Assembly (NCBI GenBank): GCA_963771175.1
Contig: CAVYSY010000036.1
Span: 32,001-96,000, forward strand
DNA: 64,000 bases
DNA from: an uncultured delta proteobacterium
Lineage (GTDB): Bacteria > Myxococcota > Myxococcia > Myxococcales > Myxococcaceae
Reading direction: 5' to 3'
The notes under the pieces were generated by a model. It was not told the DNA's origin. It searched no databases and saw only the letters and a program-made list of their open reading frames with translations. The stretch's first letter is position 1; every line of letters starts with the position of its first letter. The position numbers and the translations under genes were made by a program. Of this stretch, positions 12,334 to 60,600 are shown piece after piece.

Positions 12334-12425
12334 AGGTGCGCCGATGTAGGAGCACTCAAGGGACTCGCGGGGTTACCCCGACCCACCGGCGAGGGGACGG
12401 ACAATCGCCCGGAAGGTTTACCGAG

Positions 12426-13864
<1,439 letters not shown>

Positions 13865-13888: not shown

Positions 13889-14291
13889 ATGGCTTACAGC
13901 GACAAGGTCATCGACCACTACGAGAACCCCCGCAACGTCGGCACGCTCGACAAGGACGGACCCCAACGTGGGCACCGGCCTGGTCGGCGCGCCGGCCTGC
14001 GGCGACGTGATGCGCCTGCAGCTGAAGATCACCGACGAGGGCGTCATCGAGGACGCCAAGTTCAAGACCTTCGGCTGCGGCTCGGCCATCGCCTCCAGCT
14101 CGCTGGTCACCGAGTGGGTGAAGGGCAAGACGGTGGACCAGGCGATGGACGATCACCAACAAGGACATCGCGCGGGAGCTGTCGCTGCCGCCGGTGAAGA
14201 TCCACTGCTCGGTGCTCGCCGAGGACGCCATCAAGGCGGCCATCGCCGACTTCAAGAAGAAGCGCGAGGCCGCGCGCAGCAGAAGGCGTAG
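13889..14291 (+). CDS. iscU: Fe-S scaffold IscU (frameshifts; end approximate)
   Basis: [60 protein letters not shown]. Confidence 0.93.
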
Positions 14292-14316
14292 CGGCCCGAG
14301 TGCAAGGAGACGCGTG

Positions 14317-42835: not shown

Positions 42836-42986
42836 GTGCAAAGGCAAGCCCTTTCTTCTGGCCTACCCGGGGCAGCGCCCAGTGTGTCAGCCAGACAACA
42901 AAACATGGAAGTCAAGTCTTTCTCGTTCCACGGGTTGCTGGCCATATCGCGCTGGAGTCCCCCCCACAATCCGACGGAGAAGATCG

Positions 42987-44558
42987 ATGTCCTGGCTGCG
43001 TGTCATTGCCCTATCGGCCATGGTCCTGGCGCTGAGCCTCGGTACCACCCCCGCATCCGCCTCATCCTTCCGCCTCGCCAACATCATGGTGCGCGATGGA
43101 GTGGTGCTGGATGCGAATGTCTTTACCCCCGACACGCCGGGGCCGCACCCTGCGATCATCTTCATCACCAGTTGGGCGTTGCCCAACATCGAGTACCTCG
43201 TGCAGGCCCAGCAGTTCGCCGACGCCGGGTACGTCGTGCTCTCGTACACCCCCCGCGGCTTCTACACCTCGGGCGGTTACATCGAGACGGCTGGGCCCAA
43301 GGACGTCAGCGATGTGAGCGACATCATCGACTGGCTGCTCACCAACACCTCCGCGGATCCGGCGCGCATCGGCGCGGCGGGCATCTCGTATGGCTCGGGG
43401 ATCAGCCTGCTCGGCTCCGCGTTCGACTCGCGCATCCGTGCCGTGGCCGCCGTGAGCACGTGGACCGACCTCCAGTACTCGCTGCTCGCGAACCAGACCC
43501 GCCACCAGCAGGCCGCCGGGCTGCTGAAGCTCTCCGGCGTGCTGACGGGGCGGCCCTCGGCGGAGCTGCAGCAGATTCTCTCGGACTACTTCGACAACCG
43601 GAACCTCGCGGGGATCAGCGCCTTCGCCCAGGTGCGCAGCGCCGCGACGTACCTCGACCGCATCAACGCGAACCGCCCCGCGATCCTCATCGCGAACGCC
43701 TATGGCGACAGCCTGTTCGCGCCCAATCAGCTCTCCGACTTCTACACCCGGCTGACGGGGCCCAAGCGGCTCGAGCTGCGCCCGGGAGATCACGCCATCC
43801 CGGAGCTGACCGGCGTCCTCGGTCTGCCCAATGACGCATGGACCAGCGTGCACCGCTGGTTCGACTACTACCTGCGTGGCGTGAACACCGGCATCGCCGC
43901 GGAGAAGCCGGTCCAGCTCCAGGTACGTGGCCAGAGTGGCTACGAGGCCTATTCGTCGTGGAGTGAAATCTCGACGAGCACCGCGCGCTACAACCTGGGC
44001 GAGGTGAACTGGTGGAACGGCGAGGGCGAGCTCGTGTCGAGCGCGCAGACCGGCTGGAGCCGGACGGTCTTCGCGGGCGACGACACCGTCGCCAACGGAG
44101 GCATCGTGATGCTGACGAACGGCGCCGAGGCGCTCACGGGTGAGCCGCCGATCGCGTGGATTCCCGCGGTGGACCGGGACAACGCGGGCGTCTGGCAGTC
44201 GGGCTCGCTGACGAGTGCGCGCCGTCTGCGTGGGGCCGCGCACCTGCGCCTGACGGTGACTCCGGGCAGCTCCGGGCAGACGACGATCATCGCCTACCTC
44301 TACGACACGGACGCGCTCGGGACCGGGCACCTGGTGACGCATGTGGCCTACACGATCCGGGGCGCGGTGGCCGGCCAGGCCTACACCGTGGACACCGACT
44401 TCCCGGCCACGGTCTACGACGTGCCGAGCGGGAACCGGCTCTCGCTCGTCGTCGACACCGTCGACCCGCTCTACGCCGACCAGGGAGCGCTGTTCACCTC
44501 GGTGAAGTTCTCCTCGCCGGGGACCAATCCGTCCTACGTGTCGCTGCCGCTCAAGTAA
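42987..44558 (+). CDS. CocE/NonD (peptidase S15-like) alpha/beta hydrolase, secreted
   Basis: Signal peptide, RDGVVLDA, YTPRG, GISYGSG nucleophile, PGDH, C-terminal jelly-roll-like domain. Confidence 0.88.
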   Translation: MSWLRVIALSAMVLALSLGTTPASASSFRLANIMVRDGVVLDANVFTPDTPGPHPAIIFITSWALPNIEYLVQAQQFADAGYVVLSYTPRGFYTSGGYIETAGPKDVSDVSDIIDWLLTNTSADPARIGAAGISYGSGISLLGSAFDSRIRAVAAVSTWTDLQYSLLANQTRHQQAAGLLKLSGVLTGRPSAELQQILSDYFDNRNLAGISAFAQVRSAATYLDRINANRPAILIANAYGDSLFAPNQLSDFYTRLTGPKRLELRPGDHAIPELTGVLGLPNDAWTSVHRWFDYYLRGVNTGIAAEKPVQLQVRGQSGYEAYSSWSEISTSTARYNLGEVNWWNGEGELVSSAQTGWSRTVFAGDDTVANGGIVMLTNGAEALTGEPPIAWIPAVDRDNAGVWQSGSLTSARRLRGAAHLRLTVTPGSSGQTTIIAYLYDTDALGTGHLVTHVAYTIRGAVAGQAYTVDTDFPATVYDVPSGNRLSLVVDTVDPLYADQGALFTSVKFSSPGTNPSYVSLPLK

Positions 44559-44611: not shown

Positions 44612-46778
44612 TCAGGGATGCGCGATGACGATGAGCGTTGACGCCCGAGCTTCGACGCACGTCATCACCTTGCGCATGGTCACGGGGTCCAGCGCACCGA
44701 ACGCCTCGTCGAGCACCACGACACTGGCCCGCTGCAGCAGCGCCCGGGCCACGAAGACACGGCTCTGCTCCCCATGCGAGAGCTGCCACCCGCTCTCCCC
44801 GACCAGTTGCATCAATCCCGAGGGCATCCGGGCCAGCAGCTCCCCCAGCCCCAGCTCCTCACAGAGCGCTCGGGCGTTTTGCAGATCCTCCTGCGAGGGA
44901 GGCCAGGCGCGGCCCAACAGCAGGTTCATGGCCAGCGTGCCGGACACCACGTGGTTCTCGTGGAACTGAGGAGCACTGGCGATCTGCGCGCCCCACCCGT
45001 GCGACGTCCAGGTCGCCATGTCCAGGCCTCCCAGCAACAACAGCCCCGAGCCCTGGCCCCTCAACCCCGTCAGGATGGAGGCGAACGTCGACTTGCCCGA
45101 GCCAGAGGGCCCCTCGAGCAGCACGCGCTCTCCCGAGCGAACCACCAGAGAGGCCCGCTCGAGCACCGCCCGTGGCGCCCCCGCGTGCTTGAAGACCAGA
45201 TCGCGCACCTCGAGCAGGGCCTGGGCCTTCGGGGGCGCCGCGCCTGGGGAGAGAGGAGAGGCGCGGGTCACCCTGCCCTTCTCGCTCTCACGGGCCGCCT
45301 CTCCCGAGGCGTTGGAGCGCTTCGCGGCATCCAGGATGGGACGCACGCTGTGAAACAACACGCGCGCGCCGCTGAGGGCCAGGGCTCCGGTGGTCAGCGC
45401 CGCCAGCGCGCGCGTCGCCATGAGCGCGGCCCCCACTCCCACGGCGATCCTCGCGGTCGAGGCTCCCGCGAGCACGCCTGGGAGCGTCGCGAGGATCGCC
45501 ACCGGGAGGAGTCCCCGCCTGGAGAGCGCCACCACCCGCGCCGTCGCCGCGTCCCACTGCTCGGAGGCCTCGGCATAGTGGGCCAGCTCATGGTCCTCCT
45601 CCTCGTGCCAGCGCGCCGGCAGCTCCTGCGCGAGCCGCGTCCGGTGGCCGAGCATCCGCTCGATGAGCGCATGCGTCATGACGACCCGCGCCTCCGTCCA
45701 CCTGCGGAAGCGTGAGCGACTGGCGCGCGATCAGCACCGCCAGCAAGCAGCAGAAGCCCCCCAGCACCAGCAGCCCGAGCCAGCCCGCGGGGCCGGTCAC
45801 CATCACGCTCGCCGCCAGCACCAGATCGATCGCCGCCAGGAGGCTGGTGAAGCTGCCCACCAGCGCCATCTGCTCCATCCCCGCGCTCTCGAAAGTCCTC
45901 CCGACGTACTCGCCAATTCCACCGCGGCGCGCCTCGTCCACGGGCAGCGCGAGCGCCCCCGCCAGCAGGTCGCCTGCGCAGCAGCGCGGAGAGGTCCATC
46001 GCCAGGGACCCCTGCGACCAGGCCAGCGCCGCCTGGAGCGGCACCATCGTCAACCCCATGAGGGCCCAGGCCCAGAGCCACCCATGGTCGAGCTGCCCAT
46101 TGAACGCGCCCCGTCCAATCAACCACCAACCGGCGAGCAGGCACACCTGGACGACCACCGCCAGCAGCAAGAGCAGGACCAGCCGCCGTCCGGCCCGCAG
46201 CGACCGCAGGTGATGGACCAGACGGGCTCCAGGTGGCAGCCGGAGCGTGCGCGCGGCGATGAGGTGGGTATTGGCGAGCTGGGCTCCCAGCAACGCCCGC
46301 CGGGCCAGGGTCCGCTGGGGTGCCGGCAGTCCCGCTCGCTCCAGGACGCGATCGGCCACGGGCCCCTGTTGCGCCCTCGACGATCGCCTGCACGGCGGCG
46401 GTCAGCAGGGAGAAGGGAACCTCGTGCGGCGTCTCATCCGGGGCGATGAGGTCCGCGGCTCTCCCCCGAGGGGGACACGCGAAGCAGTGCGAGCACCCTA
46501 CGCCCCTGGGTGCTCGGCACATCCACGAGGGCCGGGGCCGCGCGGCCCAGGGCACGTTCCACTTCGCCGTGGCGCGTGTAGAGCAACTCCAACTCGAGCC
46601 CCAGCGCATGGGCCGAGGCGTCCAGCCACGCCCCCACGCGGCTCGGGTCCTCGGGTACCGCGCGCGAGAGGACCGGGAGCGGATTGGGGAGCGGCAACCG
46701 CGCCGCACGCGCCAGCGCCTCCAGGGCTTCGCCCGCTCGCGCGAACGGCCAGGACACTGCGTCCAGCTCACCCGACAT
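44612..46778 (-). CDS. ABC exporter subunit with degenerate peptidase-like N-terminus (frameshifts)
   Basis: Stitched from several ORFs starting MSGELDAVSWP; TM region; GPSGSGKST, LSHGEQSR, VVLDEAF, IAH. Confidence 0.82.
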
Positions 46779-49474
46779 GAGCCACCCCCTCCTCCTCCTC
46801 CTCGTGTCGCTCGGAGAGCACGCCCTGCTCCAGGACCAGCCGCCTCCACCCCTCCCGCCTGGACAGCTCCCCCCGCATCGACGCCTCCTCATCCAGCAGT
46901 GCGCGGTAGTGGGAGTCCTCGCACGCCGCGAGCGCCTGGGGAGCCCCGTCCTCGACCAGCCTCCCGTCCTTGATGACCAGGACGCGGTCGAACGAGAGCG
47001 TCTCGGCGATGTCATGCATGATGCAGAGCAGCGTGGTCCCCTCGAATCCCTGTCGTGCCCGCTCCAACAGCGCCGTGCGACGGTCTCGCTCGAGTCCCCG
47101 GAACGGCTCGTCGAAGATGGCCAGCCGCACCCCTGGCCGGAGCAACGCCCGGCCCAGGCGCACCCGCTGCCCCTCACCGCCCGACAACAGACTGCCCCCC
47201 TCGCCCAGCCGGGTCTCGAGCCCCTGGGGCAGCTTGTCGAGCAACTCGATGAGGTCGGCCCTGTGCAGCACCTGGCCCACCCGGGGCAGCACCTCGGCCT
47301 CGTCGGCGCCATAGGCGAGGTTGTCCACCAGGGACTTGTTCCAGAGCGTCACCTCGGGCTCCAACCACGCCGTCTCCCGCCTCAGCCGCCACAGGGCCGC
47401 CCCCTCCAGCGGCTCGCCATCCACCTCGACGCGGCCCGCGGCCGCCGGTGCCAGCCCAGGAGGACTGCCCACCAGTGACGATTTCCCAGCGCCCGAGGGG
47501 CCCACGATGGCGACGTGCTCCCCGGGTTGAACCGAGACATCAATCCCTTGCAGGAGGGTGTGGCCCCCGGCCTTCACCTCCACCTGACGCAGCGAGAACC
47601 CAACCCCCCGAGCCCCTTCCACCGGTCGCTCCGTCTGTCCTGGGGTGGCCAGCGCGACGCTCGTGGACACCTCGTCCGGAGCGAGCAGTGGCTCCATCAA
47701 TCGGCCAGTGAACGACGAGGCGGCGGGGTACTGGCGCAACGCCTCGGCGATCTGCTTGCCCAGCGTCGGCACGGCGAGCGCCCAGTAGACGAGCAGCAGG
47801 ACAGCCCCGGGTTGTACCCCCTTCGAGAGGGCGTGCAGGACAATGACAACCGAGCCCCCGGTGGCGGCGAGGGAGGCGAGCGTGTCCGCCGTGGTGCTGC
47901 GGCGCAGCAACGTGCGGGCCGCGGAGATGAACTCGTGCAGCGGCTCCTCATGAGCCCGGCGGAGCGTCAGCTCGGCATGGTGCGCCCGCAGCGCCACGGC
48001 CCCGCGCAAGGCGTCGAGGTAGAAGCGCGAGAGCACCCCGTCGAAGTCCCGCATCCGGCGATCGGCTTCGAGCAACGAGCGCTGCGCGACGAGGGGGATG
48101 CCGAGCGCCAGCCCACCCGCCAGGAAGATCAAGGGGGCGCTTCGCGGAGCCAACCACGTCAGCCCCACGAGCGTCACGAACAGCTCGGCGGCGGCGCGCA
48201 GCACCAGGGCCGCGAGGTTGGGCACGTTGCGCACCATGTGGATGCCATGGCAGCGCTGGGCCATGTCCGAGATGAGCCGGCTGCGGAAATAGCTGTCACC
48301 CAGGCGTGGGATTTTGTCGAGGAACGCGAGCCGGAGGCGGAGTTCCAACCGCCGTCCCAGGCGGAGCGTCCCGAGAGAGAGAGGCAGCTCGATCGCGAAC
48401 AGCACGCCCATCAGGACGAGCAGCGTCACGACGCCGGCGATCCGCTGTTCGGTGGTCGTGAGATAACGACCCGCGTCGATGACCCCGCGCAGGAGCAGCG
48501 CCTCCAGGAAGCCGCCCACCGCCGCGGTCACCCCCATGGCGGCGAGCACCCTCGGCGTGAGCACCCCGTCCCGGCGCATCAAGGCCACGAGCTCACGCAG
48601 GGGGCGGGTGGGCGCCTCCTTCAAGACGGCCTCGAGCCCCGGAGACAGCGGGGGTTCATCCTCCCCGTGCTCGCCGCGCAGCCCCTTCGCCCGGATGCAG
48701 ACGACGCCGCGCAAGGTGATCTCCTCGGCGTCCGGCCCTCCCACCGCCGTCCAATAGGCGGGGGGAATGAGCTCCTCGGCGCGACCCTCGTCCAGGGCCG
48801 TGCGCACCTCGAGCAGGAGCTGCTCGACGAACGCCGCCGCCGTCTCGCCAGGCTGGAGGCCGTCACCCTCCACGAGCGTCTGCACCAACCGCACCGTCGC
48901 ATCCAGGCAGGCCAGGCCCTTCCAGGTGGAATCCCCGAGCGCCTCGGCGACGAGTCGCTCCGACAACGGCCCCTCGACGAGCTCGGACAGCCTGCGACGC
49001 AGACCCACGAGGAACTCCTCCGTGCCGGCCCACTCCCGGAACCCCTCGGCGGACACGGGCATCGCGTGCACGAAGCACCGGTCGAGCAGCTCGGCGGCGG
49101 ACACCCACCGCCGCCCCAGCGCCGGATCCATGATCTGGACGCGGTTGCCCCACTTCTTCCAGAGCACCACGAAGTGCAGGTTGCCGTCCGCGAGCCTCAC
49201 CACCACGATGGCCGGCAGCGCCCCGGTCTCCTCGAGGAGCAGGTGATCGCGCGGGAGCATGCCCTGCTCCGCATCCAGCCCGAGGCTGACGGCCAGCTCC
49301 TCGAGCACATCCATGGACGTGCCGTCGACGTCGGTCTGGCAGAGCTCTCGGAGCCGTCCATAGCTGACCGGCACGCCGGAAGCCGCCGAGCAGGGCCTTG
49401 AGGGCCGCCGGACCGCAGTCCATGGCCGACGTCTGGATGACTTCTGGAACGAAAAGACGTGGTGCACCCGCCAT
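46768..49474 (-). CDS. Peptidase-containing ABC transporter (C39 + TMD + NBD; frameshift near 49380)
   Basis: QTSAMDCG (catalytic Cys), HFVVL (His), IMDPALG (Asp); GPSGAGKSS, LSGGEGQR, IFDEPF. Confidence 0.9.
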
Positions 49475-49477
49475 GGC

Positions 49478-50674
49478 TCAGCTCCCCCCCTTCGGCGACT
49501 CCGTCCCGCCCTCTACCCGCAGGACCCTGGGTTGCTCCCGTGCCGGACGGTCGAGCCCCCGACCCAAGGTGCGAAGCACGAGCTGCGACGGCGTGGCCTT
49601 CCCCACCGCGACGTCCACGAGGCCAGGCAACCCATGCTCGAGCGGAATGCCCGGCGGCAGCTCATCCACCGAGAGCTCGACTCGCACCAGGCCATCGCGA
49701 GGCTCACTCGCCACCGCCACCACCGTGGCCTCCAGCATCCCGAACTCCGCCCAGGAGAAGCCCTCCAACCGCATGCGAGCCCGCTGACCCTCGCGGATAC
49801 GCCCCAGGGCCTCCGGGGAGAACTGCGCGACGACGCGCACGGGTCCACCGGCGACGATGGTCGCGATGGGGTCACCGGCCTTGAGCTGCGCGCCCACGCG
49901 TACGGAGCTCGTCTCGCCGAGGACGCCATCCGCCGGCGCTCGAATGATACGGCGCTCCAGCTCCTCGCGCAGGCGCTCCACGTTGGCGCGCGCGACGCTC
50001 TCGTCCGACTCGAGCCGGGCAATCTCTCCCTGCAGCGCGGCGAGGCGGGTGCGCCGATCGGTGGACTGAATGCCACCTTCCGCTCTCACCCGCGCCAGCG
50101 TGGCCCGCGCGGCCTGCTCCGCGGCCAGGGACCGCTCCAGCTCCGTATGGGACCTGCTCCACTCCATCTCGCTCAACACGCCCCGCTTCCAGAGCCGCTC
50201 GGTGGTGGACTCCTCCTCCTTGGCCCGCCGCGCGACCGCCTCGGCATCGATGAGCCGGGCCCGCGCCTCCTCCACGCCCGCGATCCCCTGCCCTTTTTGC
50301 TCCACCAGGCCATGCTGCTCGGCCTCGAGCTCCGCGCGCGCCGCCTCGAGCTGAGGCCCCAGTCCTTGAAGCACGGCCTCCGCCTCCGCTACCCGGCGCT
50401 CCTCCTGCACATGCTCCAGCTCGACGAGCACATCTCCCGCATGCACGGGGCGGTGAAGCTCCACCTGCGTCTTCACCACCCGTCCCGCCACGGGTGCATC
50501 AATGGCGTACACCTCGCCATGGAGCTCCAGACGCGCCTGCGCGCTGCGCTCGTAGACGATGATGCGCGCCTGGAGGAACCAGCCCCCCCAGATCGCGAGC
50601 AGCCCCACCGGTATCAGCCAGAGCGCCGGCCGCCCGCGCCCGCGCACCAGGGCGCGCCAGGTGCGTGGAAACAT
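49478..50674 (-). CDS. HlyD-family membrane fusion protein
   Basis: TM anchor, IDAPVAGRV, coiled coil, IRAPADG; start could be TTG 50701. Confidence 0.9.
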   Translation of the reverse strand: MFPRTWRALVRGRGRPALWLIPVGLLAIWGGWFLQARIIVYERSAQARLELHGEVYAIDAPVAGRVVKTQVELHRPVHAGDVLVELEHVQEERRVAEAEAVLQGLGPQLEAARAELEAEQHGLVEQKGQGIAGVEEARARLIDAEAVARRAKEEESTTERLWKRGVLSEMEWSRSHTELERSLAAEQAARATLARVRAEGGIQSTDRRTRLAALQGEIARLESDESVARANVERLREELERRIIRAPADGVLGETSSVRVGAQLKAGDPIATIVAGGPVRVVAQFSPEALGRIREGQRARMRLEGFSWAEFGMLEATVVAVASEPRDGLVRVELSVDELPPGIPLEHGLPGLVDVAVGKATPSQLVLRTLGRGLDRPAREQPRVLRVEGGTESPKGGS

Positions 50675-50900
50675 GCCTTCGACCTTCAAGTGGCTGGCCA
50701 AATCGCCCCCCGTCTCGACCGTGCCGTCCTGCGGATGGAGGGGGCCCGTTGGCTTTGTCAGGGAGAGTGACGCTCCGAGGGAGCGGCCTGCTCGTCCTCC
50801 AGGCAGGCGTCTCGCCCAGGCATTCCGGAGGTGCCTCGCGTCACAAGAACCACCCCCCTGCTCAGACCGTACGCGAATCACACCTGTCTGGAGCTCTCGC

Positions 50901-52712
50901 ATGAGTCAGAACGCTGTATCGGTTGATCCCCACGAGACGCTGTACCTGCCCCTGCGGCGTCGCTTCATGAGCGAGTACGTGACCACGCCCGAGGGCACCC
51001 GGGAGCTGCGCATCTTCTACGGCCTCAAGGAGATCACGATCGATGAGCCGGACCTGCTCTCCTTCGGAGAGAACCTGCTCAAGCAGGACGAGTTCATGGC
51101 GGGCAGCGCCACCCTATGGAGCGAGGGTGAGCCCTACCCCTGGGAGCGCGTGAGGGAGCTGCTCGAGGCGCTGCTGGACGAGGAGATTCTCTCGCGCGAG
51201 GCCCCGAAGCCCGCGCCTTCGGAGAGTGACGTTCATCGAAGCTGGATGGAGGCCGAGGCCCGGCGGGTCGCGCCCACCGAGCCCCTGTGGTGGAACCCGG
51301 ACTGTCCCCGGGTCATGGAGCGGTTGGTGGGGCGGCCGCTGGAGTTGGGCTTCCTCGAAGCGGTGATTCCGGTGCATCGCGTCGCCCACCCGGCGCTCGA
51401 CGCGGAGGGGCGCCATATCGGGGAGAGCAACGTCTTCCCCGACGCCATGCGAATGAAGCTTCCGACGGATTGGCGACCGTGCCCCTACCCGGGCAGCCGC
51501 TATCGGGACGAGGCGATGATGAACGTGACGGCGCTCAAGTCGATGACACGGCACTGGAAGTCCGTGTTGCAGGGGGTGCTCGCGGTGCGAGAGGAGTTCC
51601 TGCGCCACCATCCCCTGCTCCCGGACGGGCGCTGGCGGCTGGGGGATCTTCACGCCCTGTGCTGCGCCGTGCTGGCTCTACCAACCCTGCGGTTGATGCG
51701 CGCGAACGCGCCCGTGCCCAATGGCGAGCTGGATCCCGTGCTCTCCTCCATGTTCCGGGTGACGGACGGCGTGCGGATGGTGACGGCCTACATGCTCTTC
51801 CTCCCGGAGCTGCCGATGCCGTACGACACGCCCATGACGGCGGCCGAGCTGCTCCGCTTCACCGAGCAGGACAATCACTTCCTGTCGACGCGGGGCGTCT
51901 GCGCCGGTCCCCCGCACATGGTGGAGGAGTTCCTCGCGACGCTGATGGATGGCAAGCCCGTGGCGGGCGTGCCCAGGCCCGCGGAGGAGTGGGACGACGA
52001 AATCCCCACGGCGATGGATTACGGGATGCGGGGACTCCAGCTCTATTGCCTCCAGTTCAACCTGTGGAGCCACATGTGCCGCGCCTACGAGTCGATCCGC
52101 GCGGCGCTGCTCGACGTGGAGGATGAGCCGGGTGGAATCTGGAGCCGGATGCGCGCGCGTGTCGAACGCGATTGGGCGATGATCCTGCCCACGCGACTGC
52201 ACACCTCCACCCAGCGAGATTGGGCAGAGGCCCGCTACATCGAGATGTTCGATCAGGCCCAGCGCGGCCTGAAGGGCTTCCGGGAGGACGCGCTGCTTCG
52301 CTTGCAGGACGTGTTCACCCCCGCGAGGGACGAAATGGATGGGAAGACCCGCCGGCAACTCCGACAGATGCTCCGCTCGCTCGCGGGCTCGCCCCCGGGG
52401 GCCCGGAGAGACGCCCTCGACACCATCGCGGACGCCGCGGCGGAGTTCCTGGCCCTCGAGCGCTCAACGCTTCGCGCCCTGGAAGGTGTTCAGCGCCAGG
52501 TCAATGCGTTGCTCCAGCGCCCCCATCCAGCGCGAAAGTTCTCCAGCGCGGATCTCTCGCTGCATCTCCGCCTGCGCCAGGGCACCATCGGCGTGCTGCC
52601 CTACCTGCTGGATGTATTCCGGGATGAGCTGGGCATCGTCGTCGAGAATACGGAGGACGACACCCGCTGCGATCTGGTCAGCTCGCCCTACCAGCAGGTA
52701 GCCCAGATGTGA
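50901..52712 (+). CDS. 603-aa hypothetical protein, candidate RiPP maturase (RRE-like N-terminus, unknown catalytic domain)
   Basis: Intact ORF from ATG 50901 with GGAG RBS, between the exporter and the precursors. CDS is well supported; the function is inference. Confidence 0.85.
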   Translation: MSQNAVSVDPHETLYLPLRRRFMSEYVTTPEGTRELRIFYGLKEITIDEPDLLSFGENLLKQDEFMAGSATLWSEGEPYPWERVRELLEALLDEEILSREAPKPAPSESDVHRSWMEAEARRVAPTEPLWWNPDCPRVMERLVGRPLELGFLEAVIPVHRVAHPALDAEGRHIGESNVFPDAMRMKLPTDWRPCPYPGSRYRDEAMMNVTALKSMTRHWKSVLQGVLAVREEFLRHHPLLPDGRWRLGDLHALCCAVLALPTLRLMRANAPVPNGELDPVLSSMFRVTDGVRMVTAYMLFLPELPMPYDTPMTAAELLRFTEQDNHFLSTRGVCAGPPHMVEEFLATLMDGKPVAGVPRPAEEWDDEIPTAMDYGMRGLQLYCLQFNLWSHMCRAYESIRAALLDVEDEPGGIWSRMRARVERDWAMILPTRLHTSTQRDWAEARYIEMFDQAQRGLKGFREDALLRLQDVFTPARDEMDGKTRRQLRQMLRSLAGSPPGARRDALDTIADAAAEFLALERSTLRALEGVQRQVNALLQRPHPARKFSSADLSLHLRLRQGTIGVLPYLLDVFRDELGIVVENTEDDTRCDLVSSPYQQVAQM

Positions 52713-52786
52713 TTCGAATGAGAATCACAAGGAGTTCGTCCCTCGCTCCTCCTGTGTGAGGTGTCTCAGAAAGGAGGAGTAAACAC

Positions 52787-52897
52787 ATGAAGATCAAGAC
52801 GAAGATTCGGGGTGGTGCGCGCACGTGCTTCGGTGGCATCTTCGGACCCATCGTCGTTCGCCCCCCAGTCCTCCGACCGCCCATCTCCCTCGCGTAG
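52787..52897 (+). CDS. Putative RiPP precursor A1: MKIKTKIRGG-ARTCFGGIFGPIVVRPPVLRPPISLA
   Basis: Manual translation; strong RBS AAGGAGGAG; double-Gly leader shared with A2 and A3. Confidence 0.85.
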   Translation: MKIKTKIRGGARTCFGGIFGPIVVRPPVLRPPISLA

Positions 52898-52931
52898 AAG
52901 AATCCAGGGAGAAGGATCCGCGTTTGATTCA

Positions 52932-52967
52932 AGTCGCCAGTGGGCGGAGCATCGCCTGCTGGCGACT
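52932..52967 (+). terminator. GC-rich stem-loop after precursor A1 (copy 1)
   Basis: AGTCGCCAGTGGGCG-GAGCAT-CGCCTGCTGGCGACT, with only a weak T-tract. Confidence 0.6.
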
Positions 52968-53093
52968 GTGTCTTGCGGGGTACGGCTCGTCGTCCCACAC
53001 GGGCCTTTTGAAAACAACTCAGACAAAAATCACAAGCGCCACGCCCCATGCTCAATCCGTACGTAGCGCGTAGCGCTCAGGAGGAGCAAACAC

Positions 53094-53162
53094 ATGAAGG
53101 TCAAGACCAAGGTTCGTGGTGGTGCTCGGATGTGCAGCGGCGGCAGCGGCACTTTCTTCTAG
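53094..53162 (+). CDS. Putative RiPP precursor A2: MKVKTKVRGG-ARMCSGGSGTFF
   Basis: Manual translation; RBS AGGAGGAG-CAAACAC-ATG. Confidence 0.85.
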   Translation: MKVKTKVRGGARMCSGGSGTFF

Positions 53163-53212
53163 CCGCAGAAGTACCCGATGGATTCGCACTCTCACTCAGG
53201 AGGAGCAAACAC

Positions 53213-53278
53213 ATGAAGATCAAGACCAAGATTCGGGGCGGAGCTCGCTCGTGTAGCGGCGGCGGCACCTTCTTCTAG
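53213..53278 (+). CDS. Putative RiPP precursor A3: MKIKTKIRGG-ARSCSGGGTFF
   Basis: Manual translation; same RBS context as A2; forms the C-terminus of track ORF 53048..53278. Confidence 0.85.
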   Translation: MKIKTKIRGGARSCSGGGTFF

Positions 53279-53302
53279 CAGCAGAAGTACCCGTTGAATT
53301 CC

Positions 53303-53344
53303 AGTCGCCAGTGGGCGGAACATCGCCCGCTGGCGACTCTTTTT
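53303..53344 (+). terminator. Rho-independent terminator after precursor A3 (copy 2 of the stem-loop)
   Basis: AGTCGCCAGTGGGCG-GAACAT-CGCCCGCTGGCGACT followed by CTTTTT. Confidence 0.75.
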
Positions 53345-53365
53345 CGTGGGAGGGTCTGGAGGGGA

Positions 53366-54868
53366 CTACCCGGCGGCGGCGGGAGAGACAGGGCGCTGCA
53401 CCTGTACGCCGGGCAGCATGGGCGCCGGGTTGAGCGACAGGATGAGCAGGCTGCGCAGGGCCTCCTTGAGGTCCTCTCCCACGCTGGCCGCCCCCGCCGG
53501 TGCGCCCTGCAGCTCCGCCGGCACCGGGTGGCCCACCACCACCACCGGAATGCGGACGTCCCACGCCAGGAAGTACGCCAGCTTCACCGCCGCCTCCGAC
53601 GTGTCGAACAGCAGCGCCCCCGCGGCTCCCGAGCTGAACGGCCGCCACAGCGGCCTCGCCGCCTCCGCCGGAGGCAGCACGCAGAAGTCCAGGTGCAGCA
53701 GCTCGTGCAGAGCCATCCGCCCCAGCGTCCCGAAGCCGCTCTTCACCGCGGGGGGCTCGGCCGCCACGGCCGCGATGTCCGGCATCTGCGACAGCAGCCG
53801 GCGCGCCACCGCCGGACCACTGCCGCACACGAAGATCTTCGCGGTGGCCTCGCGCGAGGCGCCCTTGCCCCGCAGGATGCGTCCGCGCAGCGCGTGCAGC
53901 TCGGCGGGCCCCATCAGCGGGCCGCTGTGCCCCTCCTCCGTCTCCCCCTCGGCTACGCGGGCCACGCCCTTCTGGAGGAGCGTGTGCAGCACGCCCACCA
54001 CCTCCAGGTCCGTGGCCGGCGCCAGGTCCAACACCTCGCCCACCGCCCGGGGCTGGCGCAACAGCTCCACCACCTGCGCCGTCACCGGGTGCTGGTCCTG
54101 CGTCAGGTCCGCGTCCGGCGCGAGCACCAGCCGGGCGTTGCGCGGCGGCAGCCCCGGCAGCAGCCGGTTCACCTCGTCCGCCTGGCGCATCGCCTCCAGC
54201 AGCGAGTCGTCCATCCCGCGCTGGATGCGCGGCTTTCCCCCGCTGCCTCCCGGCGCGAAGGTGAACGAGCCCTCGGCCCACACCAGCAGCCGGAAGAGGG
54301 CCTTCTCTCCCTCGGCCCGGCCCACGCGCGCGTTCGCCGGGCGGCCCTCCACCACCGATATCTCTCCGCGCTCGTTGCCCCGCTCCAGCGTCAGCTTCCC
54401 GCTGCGCTTGTTCATCCCCAGAATCTGCATCAGGTCCGGGATGCTGAGCTGGCTGAGCGAGCCTTCGATCTCCTGCACATCGCTCTTGAGGTCCTTCGCC
54501 GCCTCGTTGCGGCGGAAGACGTGCTCGATGCGGGAGAGCACCTCGTCGATGTTGAAGGGCTTGCGCAGGTAGCCCTCACGCAGGCCACGGGCCTTGTCCG
54601 CCTCGAACCTGCCGGTGGAGACCAGCACCGGGATGTCATCCGTGCGCGGGTTGGTGCGCAGGATGTTGATGAAGGTGCGCGCGTCCAGCAGATGGCACGC
54701 CTCATCGAAGAGGATGAGCTCCGGGTGGCGCAGCACGGCCACCTCCAGGGCCCGCGAGCCATCCGGCGCGTAGTGCACCTGGTAGCCCTTGGTGCGCAAC
54801 GCACGGGAGAGCGGGCGGACCGACTCGAGATCGGGGTCGGCGATGAGGATCTTTCGAACCTGGGCCAC
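53366..54868 (-). CDS. REC + DUF4388 + degenerate small-GTPase-like domain protein
   Basis: KILIADPD...LILFDE...RKPF receiver; GSLSQLSIPDLMQILGMNKRSG (DUF4388). Confidence 0.85.
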   Translation of the reverse strand: MAQVRKILIADPDLESVRPLSRALRTKGYQVHYAPDGSRALEVAVLRHPELILFDEACHLLDARTFINILRTNPRTDDIPVLVSTGRFEADKARGLREGYLRKPFNIDEVLSRIEHVFRRNEAAKDLKSDVQEIEGSLSQLSIPDLMQILGMNKRSGKLTLERGNERGEISVVEGRPANARVGRAEGEKALFRLLVWAEGSFTFAPGGSGGKPRIQRGMDDSLLEAMRQADEVNRLLPGLPPRNARLVLAPDADLTQDQHPVTAQVVELLRQPRAVGEVLDLAPATDLEVVGVLHTLLQKGVARVAEGETEEGHSGPLMGPAELHALRGRILRGKGASREATAKIFVCGSGPAVARRLLSQMPDIAAVAAEPPAVKSGFGTLGRMALHELLHLDFCVLPPAEAARPLWRPFSSGAAGALLFDTSEAAVKLAYFLAWDVRIPVVVVGHPVPAELQGAPAGAASVGEDLKEALRSLLILSLNPAPMLPGVQVQRPVSPAAAG

Positions 54869-54880
54869 GGGCGCTCCCTG

Positions 54881-56731
54881 CTAGTACGGCTGGAGATCGT
54901 ATTCCGACTGCAGGCGGGTGATGAGCCCGTCCACCACGGCGGTGTCCGACGAGTGGAAGCCCCAGGTGGTGCCCAGCCCGCGGCGCTGGATGAGCGCGTA
55001 GGCGGCGTTCTCCGAGAGCCAGAGGAGGAACTCGTGCCGGCCCATCCGCTCGTCCCCCTCCAGGAAGACAGGCGTGAGTCCCGGGTGCGACTCCAGATCC
55101 GACCGTCGCCCCAGCAGGTAGATGCGCGAGGCCATGTCGGGCGGGGCCGACTCCAACCCCAGCGCGATGGGCAGGTCCGCTCGGATTTCGGGGCTGCCCA
55201 CGTACAGCAGCCCGCGCGAGGTCGGATCCCTCAGCAGCTCGCGGGCGATCTCCGCCTGCAGCTCGTCGAAGAGGACGTCGGACACCTTGCCCCGACGAGA
55301 GGGCTCGGCGTTGTCCTCCACCGGCAGCCTGGGGCTGGAGGCGTTGCCGAGCAGCAGGTCCACCTCGTCCCAGAAGGGCAGCGTGTCCAGCATCAGCTTG
55401 CGCTGCAGTGACGAGCGCCGCTCGTCCATGCGCCGACGGCAGCGGTGGACCAGCTCGTCGAAGTCCTCGCCGTCCTTGGGAAAGGTGCTCGCCCCGCCCA
55501 CCAGCGCGAGCGGCAGGCGCGACTCCACCTCCTGCGCATCCGGCTCCTCGCGCACCGCGGCCAGCGCGCGGCGCACGAACATGATCGCGCCGAAGAAGTC
55601 CGTCTCCGGCAGCAGCAGGTAGAACTCCTGGTCGCTCGCCTTGGCGATGACGTCCGAGTCGCGGACGATCTTCGAGAGCGCCTTGATGATGCCGCGCACG
55701 GCGCGCTTGGCGTCCTGCGTCCCCAGCCGCATCTTCACCAGGGGCAGGTTGTCCACGGAGAACGTCAGCAGCGAGAACATCCGCCCGTAGCGCCGCGCCT
55801 TGTAGATTTCCTTGGAGGCGTAGTCGGTGAAGTAGCTGAGGTTGTAGGCGGCGGTGTCCCGGTCCCGCAGGCCGAGCCGCTGCAGCGACTGCACCCGGCG
55901 GCCGTTCTTGATGCCCACCGCGGCCGAGTCCCCGAGAATCTTCGCGTAGCGCACGTGCTCGGAGCGGAAGTCCCCGGCGAGCGGGTCCGAGAGCTGCGCC
56001 AGGCCCATGATCTCCCCGCTGAGGACGAAGGGGACGTAGAGCACGGGAGAGCGCTCGTCGCGGGCGATCCACGGCATGGCCTCGCGCAGGCGGTTGCCGA
56101 GCGGCCCCTCGGGGCTCATGCGCTCGGCGAGGAACTGCCTGTCCAGCAGGCCCCGGTAGGCGCGCAGGACGAGGTGTCCCCGGTCGTCGGCGATCCACAG
56201 CGCGGCGCTCTGGGCGTCGCACACGGAGGCGAGCTCGGCGGCCACGCGCTCCTGGAGCCACTCGAGGTCCGGCTGGGAGAGGAGCTCCAGACAGCGCTGG
56301 TGGAGGTTCTGGTAGCGGGCGAACTCGAGGTTCTCGCTCTGGAGCTGGGCGCGCTCGTGGCGGAGCTGGGCGCGCTCCGTGGCCCGCTCCGTGGCGAGCA
56401 GCAGGTCCGTCTCGTCCACGGGCTTGGAGAGGACGACGGCCACCCCGGCGCTCAGGGCCATGGCCGAGCCCTTCACGTCCGTGCGCTGGGTAATGAGGAT
56501 GACCTCCTGGTCGGGGTCGCGCTCGCGCAGCTTCGCGGTGAGGGCAAAGCCATCCAGCTCGGGCATCACCACATCGGTGATGACCAGGTCGAAGGAGGTG
56601 CGAGCCACCTCTTCCAGCGCCCGGGCGGCGCTCTCCACCGTGACGACGCGGTAGCCCCTCCGGGTGAGCATGTCGGAGGCGAGCTGCCGGAAGAAGTTGT
56701 CGTCATCGACGACGAGGATCGGACCAGCCAC
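54881..56731 (-). CDS. REC-GAF-degenerate GGDEF response regulator
   Basis: ILVVDDD...ITDVVMP receiver; GAF; RDSDVIAKASDQEF in place of R.GGDEF. Confidence 0.88.
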   Translation of the reverse strand: MAGPILVVDDDNFFRQLASDMLTRRGYRVVTVESAARALEEVARTSFDLVITDVVMPELDGFALTAKLRERDPDQEVILITQRTDVKGSAMALSAGVAVVLSKPVDETDLLLATERATERAQLRHERAQLQSENLEFARYQNLHQRCLELLSQPDLEWLQERVAAELASVCDAQSAALWIADDRGHLVLRAYRGLLDRQFLAERMSPEGPLGNRLREAMPWIARDERSPVLYVPFVLSGEIMGLAQLSDPLAGDFRSEHVRYAKILGDSAAVGIKNGRRVQSLQRLGLRDRDTAAYNLSYFTDYASKEIYKARRYGRMFSLLTFSVDNLPLVKMRLGTQDAKRAVRGIIKALSKIVRDSDVIAKASDQEFYLLLPETDFFGAIMFVRRALAAVREEPDAQEVESRLPLALVGGASTFPKDGEDFDELVHRCRRRMDERRSSLQRKLMLDTLPFWDEVDLLLGNASSPRLPVEDNAEPSRRGKVSDVLFDELQAEIARELLRDPTSRGLLYVGSPEIRADLPIALGLESAPPDMASRIYLLGRRSDLESHPGLTPVFLEGDERMGRHEFLLWLSENAAYALIQRRGLGTTWGFHSSDTAVVDGLITRLQSEYDLQPY

Positions 56732-56768
56732 GGCGTGAGGGACTCGAGGGGGAAGTGGACAGCGGAGG

Positions 56769-57626
56769 TTACCGGCCCTCGAGATCCGGGACAACGCCCG
56801 TGAAGACGAAGGCCGCGGGCCCGCGGAGGCGGATGTCCGACAGGTCCGCCAGCACCCGGATGTGCAGGTCACCGCCCGGCAGGTTGACACGCAGCCAGGC
56901 ATCCGCCTGGACGCGCTTGGCGAGCACCGCCGCCACGGCCGCCGCGCCAGCCCCGGTGCCACAGGCCTGGGTGAGGCCACAGCCGCGCTCCCACACCACC
57001 ACGGTCAGGCCGCCGTCCGCGTCCACCCGGGTGAACTCGACGTTGGTGCGGTCCGGGAAGCCGGGGTGCCGTTCGAGCTGGGGGCCCAGGCGGCCCGCGT
57101 CCTCGAGGGGCTGGTCGAGCAGGACGAGGTGCGGGTTGCCCATGCTGATGGCATGGCCGCGCAGCCCGGAGTGGCCGGGCACGGGCTCATCGAGGAACGG
57201 CTGGCCGGTGGCACCCGAGGGCAGGTTGGAGGCGACGAGCCGCGCCGGCCCCAGGGAGAGCTCCACCTCCGCCACGCCGTCCGCGCCGTACCTGGGCATG
57301 CACGTGAGGATTCCGGCGCCCGTCTCCACTTCGATGGACTCGGGCCGCTCGCCGGAGTTGTCCACGAGGTACTTCACCGCGCACCGCAGGCCGTTGCCGC
57401 ACATCTCCGCGACGCTGCCATCGGCGTTGTGGACCACCATCCGCGCCACCGCCGACTCCGAGGGCAGCAGGGAGAGGATGCCATCCGCGCCGATGCCCAG
57501 GCGCCGATCGCACAGCAACCGCGACGTCTCCGCGTCGACGTCCATCCCGGTCTTGCGACGGTCCAGCACGATGAAGTCGTTGCCGATGCCGTGATACTTG
57601 AAGAAGAACTCTGCGCCGGCGCTCAT
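56769..57626 (-). CDS. dapF: Diaminopimelate epimerase
   Basis: KYHGIGNDF, EMCGNG, MGNPH, WERGCGLTQACGTG. Confidence 0.96.
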   Translation of the reverse strand: MSAGAEFFFKYHGIGNDFIVLDRRKTGMDVDAETSRLLCDRRLGIGADGILSLLPSESAVARMVVHNADGSVAEMCGNGLRCAVKYLVDNSGERPESIEVETGAGILTCMPRYGADGVAEVELSLGPARLVASNLPSGATGQPFLDEPVPGHSGLRGHAISMGNPHLVLLDQPLEDAGRLGPQLERHPGFPDRTNVEFTRVDADGGLTVVVWERGCGLTQACGTGAGAAAVAAVLAKRVQADAWLRVNLPGGDLHIRVLADLSDIRLRGPAAFVFTGVVPDLEGR

Positions 57627-57650: not shown

Positions 57651-60600
57651 TCAGCCCTGCTCGTCGGTTTTCGGGTCGGAGGGAGCTGCCTCGGATGCCG
57701 GCGAACCGGCGGGCGAGGCGGGTGTGCTCCCCTTTGGGCGGCGAAGTAAATCATTCTTCACCGCGTTGATCTCGGCGTTGGCCCGCGCGTAGATGTCCTG
57801 AACGGTGTTCGACCCCGCCCGGGCCGAGCTGCGCTTGAGCGTGGCCAGTTCGGACGCCTGTCCCTCCAGGCGCTGCTGCTGCTCCGCGATTGCCGCATCG
57901 CGCTCGGCCAGGGTGGCCTGGAGGGTCTCGAGCTCGCTCTGCAGGCGCTCCACTTCCTCGGACAGCTCCAGCACGGCCTCGGAGTCCGATACCGGCTTGC
58001 GCGTTTCGAGCTGCTTGATCTTCTCCCGCAACCCGGCCCGCTCGCTCTCGAGGGCCTGGAGCCGAGCCCCCAGCGCCTCGGCGGCCTGGGCCTGCTTCGC
58101 CTTCTCCGTACGCTCGGCGTCGAGGAACTTCACCGCCTCCGCGGAGGCCGCCTCCAGCGCGGTCACCCGGCCCTCCAGACGGATACGGGCCGCGCGGGCC
58201 ACCGTGAGATCCGAGCTGAGCCGCTCACGCTCGGACACGAGCCCGGCCTTCTCCGATTCCAGCTTCGCGAACTGCTCCTGCACGGCCTGCGCGGAAGCCT
58301 CCCGCTCCCGGGCCTGCCGCTCGACCTCGTTCGCCTTGGACTCCAGCTCGGCCAGCTTCTCCTTCGCGGAGGCCTCCTGCTCCCGGGCCTGCTGTCTGGC
58401 TTCATCCGCCAAGGCCTCCAGCTCGGCCAGCTTCTCCTTCGCGGCCTCCAGACTGGCGGTGGTCTCCGAGAGACGGACCTCGAGCTGGCTCGCCGACTGC
58501 TCCGCCTCCGAGACCCGCTCCCGCTCCGCCTCGGTGGCCGAGTGGGCCCGGACCAGCTCCGCGCGTACGTCCTCGAGCTGGGCGCGGGTGGCCTCGACAG
58601 CCGCGCGCTCCTTCTCCAGCTCGGCCCGGGCGGCCTCGACCGCCGCGCGCTCCTCCTGGAGGGCGGATTCGAGAGAGGGCGCCTTGCCCGCGATACGCCG
58701 CGCCGATTCGAGCTGCACGGTGAGCAGCTCCGCCTGCTCGTGCTCCGCGGTGAGCCGGGCCTGGGCCTCGGTCAGCTCCGTCTGGAGGTGCGCGATGTGG
58801 GCATCGCGATCGCGCAGGCCCATGTGGGCTTGCTGGAGGGCCATCGAGGCCTGCTGTGCCTGGAACCGGGCGGCCTCGAGCTGTCCCACCTGGGCCCGCA
58901 GCACCGCCAGCTCCTCGTCCTTCCTCGCGAGGTCGTCCCGGAGCCCCTCCAGCTCCACCCGGGACTCCACCGCGTCGCGCTTCCGGGCCTCGCGCTCCGT
59001 GGAGATGGCCTCCTCGCGCGCACGGGCCTCCGCGAGCCGCGCCTCGGCCTCGCGCAGCTTCTCCTCGAGCTCGCGGGCGCGCGAGTCCAGGCCAGAGGCC
59101 CGGGTGGTCTCGGCCTCGTGCTCGGAGCGCAGGCGCGTGAGGGCCTCCTGCTGCTCCTTGGACGTGCCGCGCTCCCACTCCAGGCTCGACCGGAGCTCCT
59201 CGACGAGCTGCTTCTGCTCGACCAGGGCGACGCCGAGGTCCTTCCCCTCGCGCAGGGCCGTCTCCAGCTCCTCGCGCAGGGCCGCGGCCTCCTGCCGGGC
59301 CACCTCCAGGGCCTCGAGCCGCGCCCGCTCGCGTTCGTCCGCGCCCGCCCGGGCGGACTCCAGGTCCGCGCGCGCCTCGGCCAGCGACTGCTCCACGGCC
59401 TCGCGCCCGGTGCGCTCCGAGTCCAGCTCGCGCCGGGTCTCCGCGAGGGTGGCCTCCACCTGCTCGCGTCCCTGCTGCTGGGACTCCGCCTCGGTACGGG
59501 CCTGGGCCAGCGAGGCCTCCAGTGCTTCCCGCTCCCGCCGTGCCTCTTCGAGCTCCGCCTCGGTCCGGGCGCGCTGCCGCCGCTCGGTATCGAGGTCCGT
59601 CCGGGCGGTACCGAGCGAAGCCTCGGTCTGCGCCTTGCTCTCGCGCTCCCACTCCAGCTCGGCGCGGGCCGATGCGAACGACTCCTCGGCCTGGGTGCGC
59701 TGCTTCCGCTCGGCGTCGAACTCCGCGCGAACCGACGCGAGCGACTCCTCGGCCTGGGTGCGCTGCCGCCGCTCGGTGTCGAGCTCCGCGCGGACCTGCG
59801 TGAAGGCCTCCTCCGACTGCCCATGCACCTGCTGCGCGGAGTCGAGCTCGGCACGGGCGGAGGCCAGCGCGGCCTCGAGCCCGGTGCGCTGCCGACGCTC
59901 CGATTCGAGCGCGGACCGCTCCTGCGCCAGGGTCTCCTCCACCTCGGCCCACTGCCGCCGCTCCGATTCGAGCTCGGCCCGCTCCTGCGTCAGAGCCGCT
60001 TCCACCCCGGCCCGCTGCTGCCGCTCCCCTTCGAGCTCGGTCCGGGTCCTCGCGTTCTCCTCATCCACCAGGAGACGCTGCTGCCGCTCCGCCTTCAGCT
60101 CCGCCCGGGCCCTCGCGAGCGACTCCCGCGCCTCCGCGAGCTGCTGCCGCTCCCCCTCGAGGTCCGCCTGCGTCGACGTCCCCGCCTCCTCCAGCAGGGT
60201 GCGCTGATTCCGCTCGACCTCGAGCTCGGCCTGGACTCGCGCCAGGGCCTCTTCCAGCCGCGCCCTTCCCTGCTGTTCGAGCGCGAGCCCGGCCAGGGCC
60301 TGCTCTCGGGCCTCGTCCGCCTTCGCCCGCTCCTGCTGCTCGGCCGCGATGGTGCCCTGCGTCGCCTTCAGCGCCGCGTCGAGCCGGGCGATCGACTCCA
60401 CGTCCGAGGCCCGCGCCCGCTCCAGCTCGGTGAGCGTCGCCTCGGCCTCCACCACGCGCCGCCGTAGGGCACCACGCTCATCGGCCCACTCCTGCCGTTG
60501 GGCCTCCAGCTCGGCGAGGACGCGCGCCGCCTCCTCGCGCGCGGCCACCTCCACCGCCATCTGGTTCTCGAGCCCCTCGGCCCGATGCTGCTGGGCCTCG

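Follow-up and report, generated by a model that had tools for sequence, protein, structure and literature searches.

The window, a stretch of 64,000 nucleotides (G+C ~70%) from contig CAVYSY010000036.1 of an uncultured member of the Myxococcaceae, carries a divergent locus in which a leftward exporter operon stands back to back with a rightward operon for a 603-aa protein (50901–52712, + strand; here called X603) and three short peptides. All the parts named in a preliminary description of this DNA were found. We consider it probable that the locus is a compact system of the RiPP type (peptides synthesized on the ribosome and then modified post-translationally), in which X603 would act as a leader-guided maturase on short Cys-containing precursors that are then cleaved by a C39 peptidase and exported. 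The preliminary description had proposed a compact RiPP cluster, and its proposal is supported by the linkage of peptides and exporter, by the position of X603 outside every characterised family and by a predicted N-terminal fold in X603 that resembles a RiPP recognition element (RRE).

In the pathway that we propose, the RRE-like winged helix of cytoplasmic X603 would bind the leader, and the large helical domain of the same protein would modify the core at or beside its Cys. Judging from its family and conserved catalytic triad, the C39 domain of the peptidase-containing ABC transporter (PCAT) would then cut after [G/A/S]-G, residues 9–10 of the precursor, and a machine of HlyD, PCAT and a second ABC subunit (ABC2) would export the short product. 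Both the RRE-like domain of X603 and the C39 domain would make use of the conserved decapeptide. We give roughly even chances to the further claim that this is a new RiPP class extending over Myxococcota and Pseudomonadota, with an enzyme whose fold has no relation to any solved structure, an unusually short 10-residue leader of the Gly-Gly type and an unprecedented modification at an Arg-flanked Cys. If that were true, the products would be very small secreted molecules, with cores down to 5 residues, for example antimetabolites, signals or metal binders.

Precursor peptides and their linkage to X603

Related loci were gathered by a scan with one genome per species, which returned 195 relatives; the best 80 of these 195 represent 76 loci, and together with the window they form the 77 sources used throughout. 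Full 8-kb flanks were available for 43 of the loci, and some loci had little or no flank. Linkage and conservation were evaluated on 81 near-full copies of X603.

Three tiny open reading frames (ORFs) with a common double-Gly leader had been noted in the window. They are present, each is led by an AGGAGG Shine-Dalgarno (SD) sequence 6 nt upstream of its ATG, and together they make up one 93-nt direct-repeat family with 67–78% identity. Across the 77 sources, we searched short ORFs for the leader pattern ^M[KR][IVLM][KR][TS].[IVLM].[GAS]G, with reversed sequences as the control, and found 130 peptides in 66 sources. Because all 130 lie on the strand of the X603 homologue and the reversed sequences yielded none, the peptides occur there by more than chance. 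A looser leader pattern adds L008, L049, L053 and L054, leaving seven loci with no peptide, at least three of which (L058, L061 and L062) offer hardly any or no flanking sequence next to the gene.

These 130 short peptides combine a conserved leader with a variable core, with pairwise identity of 71% over residues 1–10 and 14% over residues 11–20. Counting back from the core, position −1 is Gly in every peptide, position −2 is Ala (66), Gly (56) or Ser (8), position −4 is Val, Ile or Leu in 129 and Met once, position −7 is always Lys or Arg, and position −8 is Ile or Val in 129 and Leu once. Cores span 5–47 residues (median 16; 11–26 in the window), with a Gly content of 21.6% and a Gln content of 1.6%. 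Exactly one Cys is present in 122 of the 130 cores, and an Arg lies no more than two residues from it in 115 of those 122. The shortest cores, such as NLCLR, MLCAR and MRACV, consist of little beyond this Arg/Cys motif. Loci encode between one and nine distinct peptides. Near-pure poly-Gly cores were also seen (L043, 9839–9997; L076, 9882–10016), and a 28-Gly run follows the Arg-Cys motif in a Rubrivivax metagenome-assembled genome (MAG).

As a check on its proposal, the preliminary description had suggested asking if X603 homologues co-occur with short-leader ORFs and C39 transporters, and both associations were found: a same-strand peptide gene lies within 1.6 kb of 73 of the 81 X603 copies, and 41 of the 76 loci have exporter genes in the fetched flank. 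The peptide gene is downstream of X603 in 61 of the 73, with gaps of 10–216 nt for the closest 60. The class of Cys context tracks the X603 tree: it needs 26 changes, compared with 48.7 on average after shuffling, and none of 200 shuffles came as low, a pattern to which relatedness alone contributes. Tandem X603 paralogues each have their own distinct peptide genes (L025, L026 and L033). In these loci three paralogues fall within a few kb (L025, 3340–9752; L026, 8001–15651; L033, 2490–8128), arranged head to tail in L025 and L033 and with one copy on the opposite strand in L026.

The 76 loci comprise 47 from Myxococcota, 27 from Pseudomonadota (Burkholderiales, Methylococcales, Steroidobacterales and others), one from a Planctomycetota MAG and one from an Acidobacteriota MAG. 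The Planctomycetota record is doubtful because the loci L053 and L054, from MAGs of one study labelled Planctomycetota and Ectothiorhodospiraceae, are essentially identical (branch lengths 0 and 0.0016), which has the appearance of a binning error. In Methylococcales, Cys-free peptides encoded upstream of X603 carry the ten-residue leader too (L052, 7706–7819; L065, 7625–7729; L066, 6941–7042). The peptides of L052 and L065 are His-rich, with repeated DDAPGH-like motifs, and that of L066 has neither feature. These methanotroph peptides without Cys could represent a second type of substrate, or else products that bind metal.

Annotation mostly misses the peptide genes: only 12 relatives of one 40-aa Archangium precursor were found among 5.8 billion clusters. 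The six named relatives among these 12 are all hypothetical in sequence databases, and UniRef calls one a ‘Lipoprotein’. Comparison with NCBIfam (release 20, June 2026) placed the peptides in no family, using the three window peptides at E ≤ 1 and eight longer relatives at E ≤ 10.

The UniRef label fits an alternative in which the conserved Cys is a lipidation site and the N-terminus a signal peptide for Lgt and signal peptidase II. The peptides do have a positive N-terminus followed by an invariant Cys, and RiPP-lipoproteins exist (PMC13056109). A lipoprotein signal peptide fails the direct test, as the lipobox [LVI][ASTVI][GAS]C is found in none of 129 distinct peptides, and in 123 of 124 peptides no hydrophobic stretch ahead of the Cys exceeds 4 residues. 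In addition, the two positions before the Cys (−1 and −2) are often Arg, and a dedicated C39 exporter is linked instead. We reject this candidate, and the chance that lipidation explains the Cys is very small. An MNIO lipoprotein RiPP was also rejected.

The X603 protein and its predicted structure

The preliminary description had recognised no family for X603, and database searches agree. X603 matches no Pfam or NCBIfam family and nothing in PADLOC or PHROGs, and a profile of 105 X603 homologues run against PDB sequences retrieved designed helical bundles only (best E 0.0011). Scanned singly at E ≤ 5, 22 diverse homologues have no family in common. Radical-SAM, YcaO, LanB/C/M and P450 domains, which had been reported as lacking in the candidate enzyme, were found neither in X603 nor in the 22 homologues, and the same is true of MNIO/DUF692, ATP-grasp and nitroreductase-type dehydrogenase domains; X603 and its homologues also gave no Pfam PqqD match. 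In the ESM Atlas, whole X603 reached a best score of 0.83, to winged-helix clusters, which is a weak lead only, and residues 125–400 gave no usable match.

The protein nonetheless belongs to a large family of its own. A word-index search retrieved 390 X603 homologues at E ≤ 0.001 among 8000 candidates scored, and an exhaustive search retrieved 748 cluster representatives at E ≤ 0.001, 126 of them at E ≤ 1e-30. Of the 120 homologues listed, those with a name are all called ‘hypothetical’ or ‘uncharacterized’, and a Pfam domain occurs in none. X603 is fused to an N-terminal GNAT domain in one representative and to a C-terminal DUF7059 plus MTS-type methyltransferase in three; a search for longer fused forms (1057–3015 aa) found none. 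Across the 81 copies, identity is 95% or higher in 61 columns, among them H163, D167, E175, C194, R200, N208, S282, R286, D289, C334 and Y374. Because of two invariant Cys, an H-x3-D pair, invariant Arg, Asp and Glu residues, and the fusions to acetyl- and methyltransferases, we suggest catalysis on an anionic co-substrate or at a metal/thiol centre, aimed at the core's single invariant feature, the Arg-flanked Cys.

We modelled X603 with AlphaFold2 on 105 sequences (pLDDT 95.0, pTM 0.94). In the model, three main strands and then three helices make up residues ~13–93, where a short additional strand also lies between helices 1 and 2; residues ~110–560 build a large conserved helical domain. 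Within the latter, residues 162–208 are largely irregular and strongly conserved (H163, D167, R171, E175, N177, R184, C194, R200 and N208), helices continue to ~350 and include an invariant GVCAGP motif at 332–337, and very long helices are bundled at 363–537; a small C-terminal hairpin is predicted at 579–592. Foldseek matches to the whole model (best TM-score ~0.12–0.13, to fumarases, MFS transporters and tape-measure proteins) were taken as long-helix noise, and the whole model matched nothing in BFVD. Local matches of the whole model, over ~105 columns, are to the ribosomal oxygenases MINA53 and NO66.

When residues 8–100 were modelled separately (pLDDT 91.5), 12 further Foldseek rows pointed to RRE-bearing proteins, namely McbB (two), PbtF RRE, ThcOx, TruD, LynD (three), TbtB, CteB, TbiB1 with leader, and PqqD (probabilities 0.33–0.97, TMq 0.42–0.55). 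Since no RRE match reaches E ≤ 0.001, we call the predicted N-terminal domain RRE-like, a likeness of fold rather than proof of family membership. Taken together, the conserved columns, the RRE-type matches and the natural fusions to GNAT and methyltransferases give X603 the look of an enzyme that carries a putative domain for leader binding.

X603 might instead be a dedicated, non-enzymatic partner in the cytoplasm (a chaperone, an export adaptor or an immunity protein) to which the unmodified peptides bind via its winged helix, the products being plain Cys peptides. We think this unlikely. It would account for the one-to-one pairing of X603 paralogues with their own peptides and for a protein in which neither a cofactor motif nor a known catalytic fold was found. 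The near-invariant columns, many of them His, Asp, Glu, Cys, Arg, Asn, Ser or Tyr, nevertheless exceed what is usual for a binding scaffold, and the copies compared come from loci of four phyla (74 of 76 in Myxococcota or Pseudomonadota). The fusions suit a tailoring enzyme, and 5-residue cores are unlikely to be active if unmodified. For double-glycine bacteriocins, the immunity protein is usually a small membrane protein.

A winged helix at the N-terminus also invites a regulatory explanation, in which X603 serves as cytoplasmic receptor or regulator for peptides that are secreted as quorum-sensing pheromones, with the winged helix on DNA and the helical domain on the peptide. PCATs do export pheromones such as ComC (PMC10885120), and regulators are found nearby, with histidine kinase genes near 13 loci, sigma-54 response regulators near 8 and a response regulator flanking the window locus. 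The order of elements in the X603 domain is strand-strand-strand-helix-helix-helix, however, and the matches other than oxygenases are RiPP enzymes, not DNA-binding regulators. The SD-led peptide genes stand directly downstream of X603, as precursors usually sit by their maturase, the invariant polar residues of X603 suggest catalysis, and the regulator genes are sporadic. We regard pheromone signalling through X603 as quite improbable and continue with X603 as a candidate maturase.

Exporter, gene order and accessory genes

A leader peptidase and an exporter are both encoded at the locus. The PCAT, of ~900 aa, consists of a C39 domain (E 4.4e-13), an extra stretch of ~150 aa, a membrane domain and an ATPase, and ABC2 has an N-terminal C39-like domain that appears to be without the catalytic Cys, as judged from its translation and not from an alignment to C39. 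Of the 34 related loci with a C39 high-scoring segment pair (HSP), 33 have the full Cys/His/Asp triad, the exception (L071) being cut at a contig end, and the domain is unusually conserved, at 55–65% identity between phyla. By clustering, ABC2 homologues occur in 38 of the 77 sources, PCAT homologues in 37 and HlyD homologues in 37. The 41 loci with exporter genes were counted by tblastn for PCAT, HlyD or ABC2, and among the 43 loci with full flanks the count is 26. Many exporter-less loci are extra X603-peptide copies in genomes with the exporter elsewhere, for example in Archangium violaceum Cb vi76 and Archangium lansingense. The extra stretch of the PCAT (residues ~150–300, between the C39 and membrane domains) has no Pfam match, and Proteobacterial orthologues are of similar length (902–907 aa).

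Compared with three Archangium orthologues, the exporter region of the window has six 1-nt insertions and one 1-nt deletion. In the PCAT, a 1-nt insertion at 49379 puts residues 1–32/33, with the catalytic Cys (DCGPAAL), out of frame with the His and Asp, and the triad is spread over two HSPs. The C39 triad had been called intact in the preliminary description; its residues are present, but the ORF as assembled is broken. A further insertion/deletion pair at 47466/47444 is compensated. Insertions of 1 nt at 46459, 46370, 45969 and 45714 divide ABC2 into five frame segments, and a tblastn search with L010's intact orthologue yields five HSPs, spread over three frames, with 54–82% identity. Because the housekeeping genes iscS (12336–13796), split over three frames, and iscU (~13889–14300, + strand), split over at least three, are broken likewise, the frame breaks in both ABC genes are best read as assembly errors, and we rejected a pseudogenised exporter. 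The many 1-nt frame breaks in this assembly mean that gene calls anywhere in the window should allow for frameshifts.

Several points weigh against a maturase-and-exporter system of this kind. The maturase role of X603 is inferred, and its putative enzymatic activity is argued solely from conservation, since Foldseek gave no PDB match to the whole model at E ≤ 0.001 (best E 0.07); X603 also has no cofactor or catalytic motif that could be named. Residues 8–100 match the winged-helix domains of the oxygenases MINA53 and NO66 best (2xdv, E 2.7e-3, TMq 0.66), with all 12 RRE-bearing rows at E > 0.001. The leader is atypical for C39, with 10 residues, Lys at −7, no position −12, and Ala or Ser at −2 and not at −1. 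Eight of the 130 peptides depart from a single Cys (five have none, three have two or three), 35 of the 76 loci have no exporter within the fetched flank, and the exporter genes of the window are frame-broken as assembled. We hold a compact RiPP-type system to be the probable explanation with these points included.

The gene order of the locus is given in the table. HlyD is the leading gene of the leftward exporter operon. Its ORF (49478–50902) remains open upstream, and we set the start at the Met at 50674 (residue 77 of the ORF), which is probable, because homologue alignments begin near that Met, at ORF residues 43–78 in most loci. The X603 start at 50901 agrees with homologue alignments. 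Promoters are inferred only, as a scan for sigma-70-like promoters across 50400–53500 found no match. The last hairpin closes the X603-peptide operon. The hairpin after peptide 1 is related to it and is possibly an attenuator; a scan for terminator-like sites picked up only its inner 5-pair stem (52952–52965).

Table. Features of the divergent locus and its neighbours, in window positions
Feature	Position	Strand	Evidence or remark
S15-family peptidase, neighbour outside the locus	42882–44558		
Second ABC exporter subunit (ABC2)	44612–46778	−	Pfam ABC_tran 9.2e-20
C39 peptidase-ABC transporter (PCAT)	46768–49474	−	Peptidase_C39 4.4e-13, ABC_tran 3.9e-20
HlyD-family periplasmic adaptor	49478–50674	−	HlyD_3 5.7e-17; ORF open to 50902
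Divergent intergenic region between the operons	50675–50900	.	Presumed promoter site, from gene coordinates
X603, candidate maturase	50901–52712	+	603-aa ORF; no family match
Precursor peptide 1 (36 aa): MKIKTKIRGG + ARTCFGGIFGPIVVRPPVLRPPISLA	52787–52897	+	SD-led; repeat family D1; leader pattern
Hairpin 3′ of peptide 1, 15-nt arms, 87% complementary, weak T tract	52932–52967	+	Inverted repeat I4
Precursor peptide 2 (22 aa): MKVKTKVRGG + ARMCSGGSGTFF	53094–53162	+	SD-led; repeat; leader pattern
Precursor peptide 3 (21 aa): MKIKTKIRGG + ARSCSGGGTFF	53213–53278	+	SD-led; repeat; leader pattern
Terminator-like hairpin, 16 pairs (11 G-C), then CTTTTTCG (T tract)	53303–53338	+	Inverted repeat I3
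Response-regulator gene with DUF4388 domain, flanks the peptide genes	53366–54868	−	
Second response-regulator gene, outside the locus	54881–56980		

The response regulator next to the peptide genes has a same-family ORF only in L001 (Archangium) and L056 (Kofleriaceae) among the related loci. Further right, an ORF of 1586 aa (57651–62411, − strand) looks like one long Glu/Ala/Arg-rich coiled coil and is unrelated to the X603 system.

Accessory families were defined by all-versus-all clustering of the ORFs from the 77 sources. A di-haem CCP/MauG-type gene is present in 16 sources, in both Myxococcus and Gammaproteobacteria (for example L013, 6102–7787; L036, 8399–10645; L044, 10251–12494; L057, 5636–7870), and is absent from the window. 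It usually adjoins the X603 homologue directly and on the same strand. Its product is nearest to the MbnH family (1e-32 to 3e-36), under the cut-off of that family, and may carry out a periplasmic tailoring step. The occurrence of Cys-free His-rich peptides beside MbnH-like di-haem enzymes in methanotrophs hints at a metal-handling role. Less frequent in the neighbourhood are an ORF family with an S8 protease as its representative (5 loci), a CHAT-domain protein (4) and a UbiE-type methyltransferase (4), and the regulators counted above are histidine kinases and sigma-54 response regulators. In one locus only (L038, 9851–12241), an arginase-family gene (Pfam Arginase 2.2e-77) comes immediately after a row of seven tandem peptide genes; its product could be a peptide arginase that targets the conserved Arg. 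Variable tailoring genes around a fixed core, as seen here, are typical of RiPP families.

Comparison with known systems

The system seems previously undescribed. Full-text searches of open-access papers and bioRxiv, including searches for hexapeptide strings of the leader, returned no description, which is not proof of absence, and NCBIfam release 20 and the Pfam copy used contain no model for X603 or the peptides. New enzyme chemistry and bioactive scaffolds come with new RiPP classes, and this family is large and occurs in prolific producers (Archangium and Myxococcus) and in methanotrophs. The fold of its candidate enzyme is predicted with confidence and has no solved relative, its ten-residue leader would ease the engineering and chemical synthesis of substrates, and the invariant single Cys offers an immediately testable target of modification.

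We weighed the possibility that the locus is a diverged member of a described class, such as NHLP/Nif11 systems, trifolitoxin-like tiarins, lanthipeptides, azol(in)e peptides or MNIO products. The closest likeness in layout is NHLP/Nif11 export, in which an HlyD protein (TIGR03794), a peptidase-ABC (TIGR03796) and a second ABC (TIGR03797) are likewise encoded beside short precursors of the Gly-Gly type; the peptidase-like domain of the second ABC appears degenerate in both, here by inspection and not by alignment to C39. An analogy with NHLM-type clusters had been drawn from the pairing of two ABC subunits with HlyD. That layout holds, but all three proteins match the NHLP families weakly and far under their cut-offs: 138.7 versus 853.3 for TIGR03796, 126.9 and 96.4 versus 709.4 for TIGR03797, and 34.6 versus 156.2 for TIGR03794. 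The window system also differs in its PCAT, which has ~900 aa with the ~150-aa extra stretch, and in its 10-residue leader, which replaces the long NHLP/Nif11 domain; the peptides carry no NCBIfam leader family.

A second likeness is to trifolitoxin and the tiarins, which are also short secreted RiPPs whose active part has an Arg and a nearby Cys (10.64898/2025.12.02.691738); the Arg-x-x-Cys core is reminiscent of trifolitoxin. Tiarins are defined by paired TfxB/TfxC FMN dehydrogenases and a conserved Gln (10.64898/2025.12.02.691738), neither of which is present here, and their leaders are of a different type. No nitroreductase-type domain was found in nine window ORFs or in 46 neighbour ORFs from 10 related loci. 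On this definition, the tiarin family excludes the present system, and we rejected an identity with trifolitoxin or tiarins. Together with the enzyme domains found lacking in X603 and its 22 homologues, the direct tests against NHLP cut-offs and the tiarin definition led us to reject a diverged known class, which we judge highly improbable.

The leader invites comparison with double-glycine PCAT systems (ComC/ComA, LahA/LahT, class II lanthipeptides and class II microcins), with which the system shares the C39-ABC protein, Gly at −1 and a hydrophobic residue at −4. Known double-glycine leaders are hydrophobic at −4, −7 and −12 and end in GG, GA or GS (PMC10885120). The leaders described here fit at −4, but they carry Lys or Arg at −7 in all 130 peptides, have no −12 and end in [A/G/S]-G. 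In contrast to the ComC/LahA type, the whole leader has 10 residues, with Lys at −7, Ile or Val at −8 and a variable small residue at −2.

Finally, the predicted N-terminal domain of X603 resembles the RRE (PqqD-like) domains of RiPP enzymes in its three strands followed by three helices and in its Foldseek matches. It differs from them in being fused to a catalytic-looking domain of unknown fold, in its better match to oxygenase winged helices and in its lack of a Pfam PqqD hit. The general logic of leader, maturase and C39 exporter is already known; what seems new is the candidate maturase family and its fold, the ten-residue leader and the single-Cys core.

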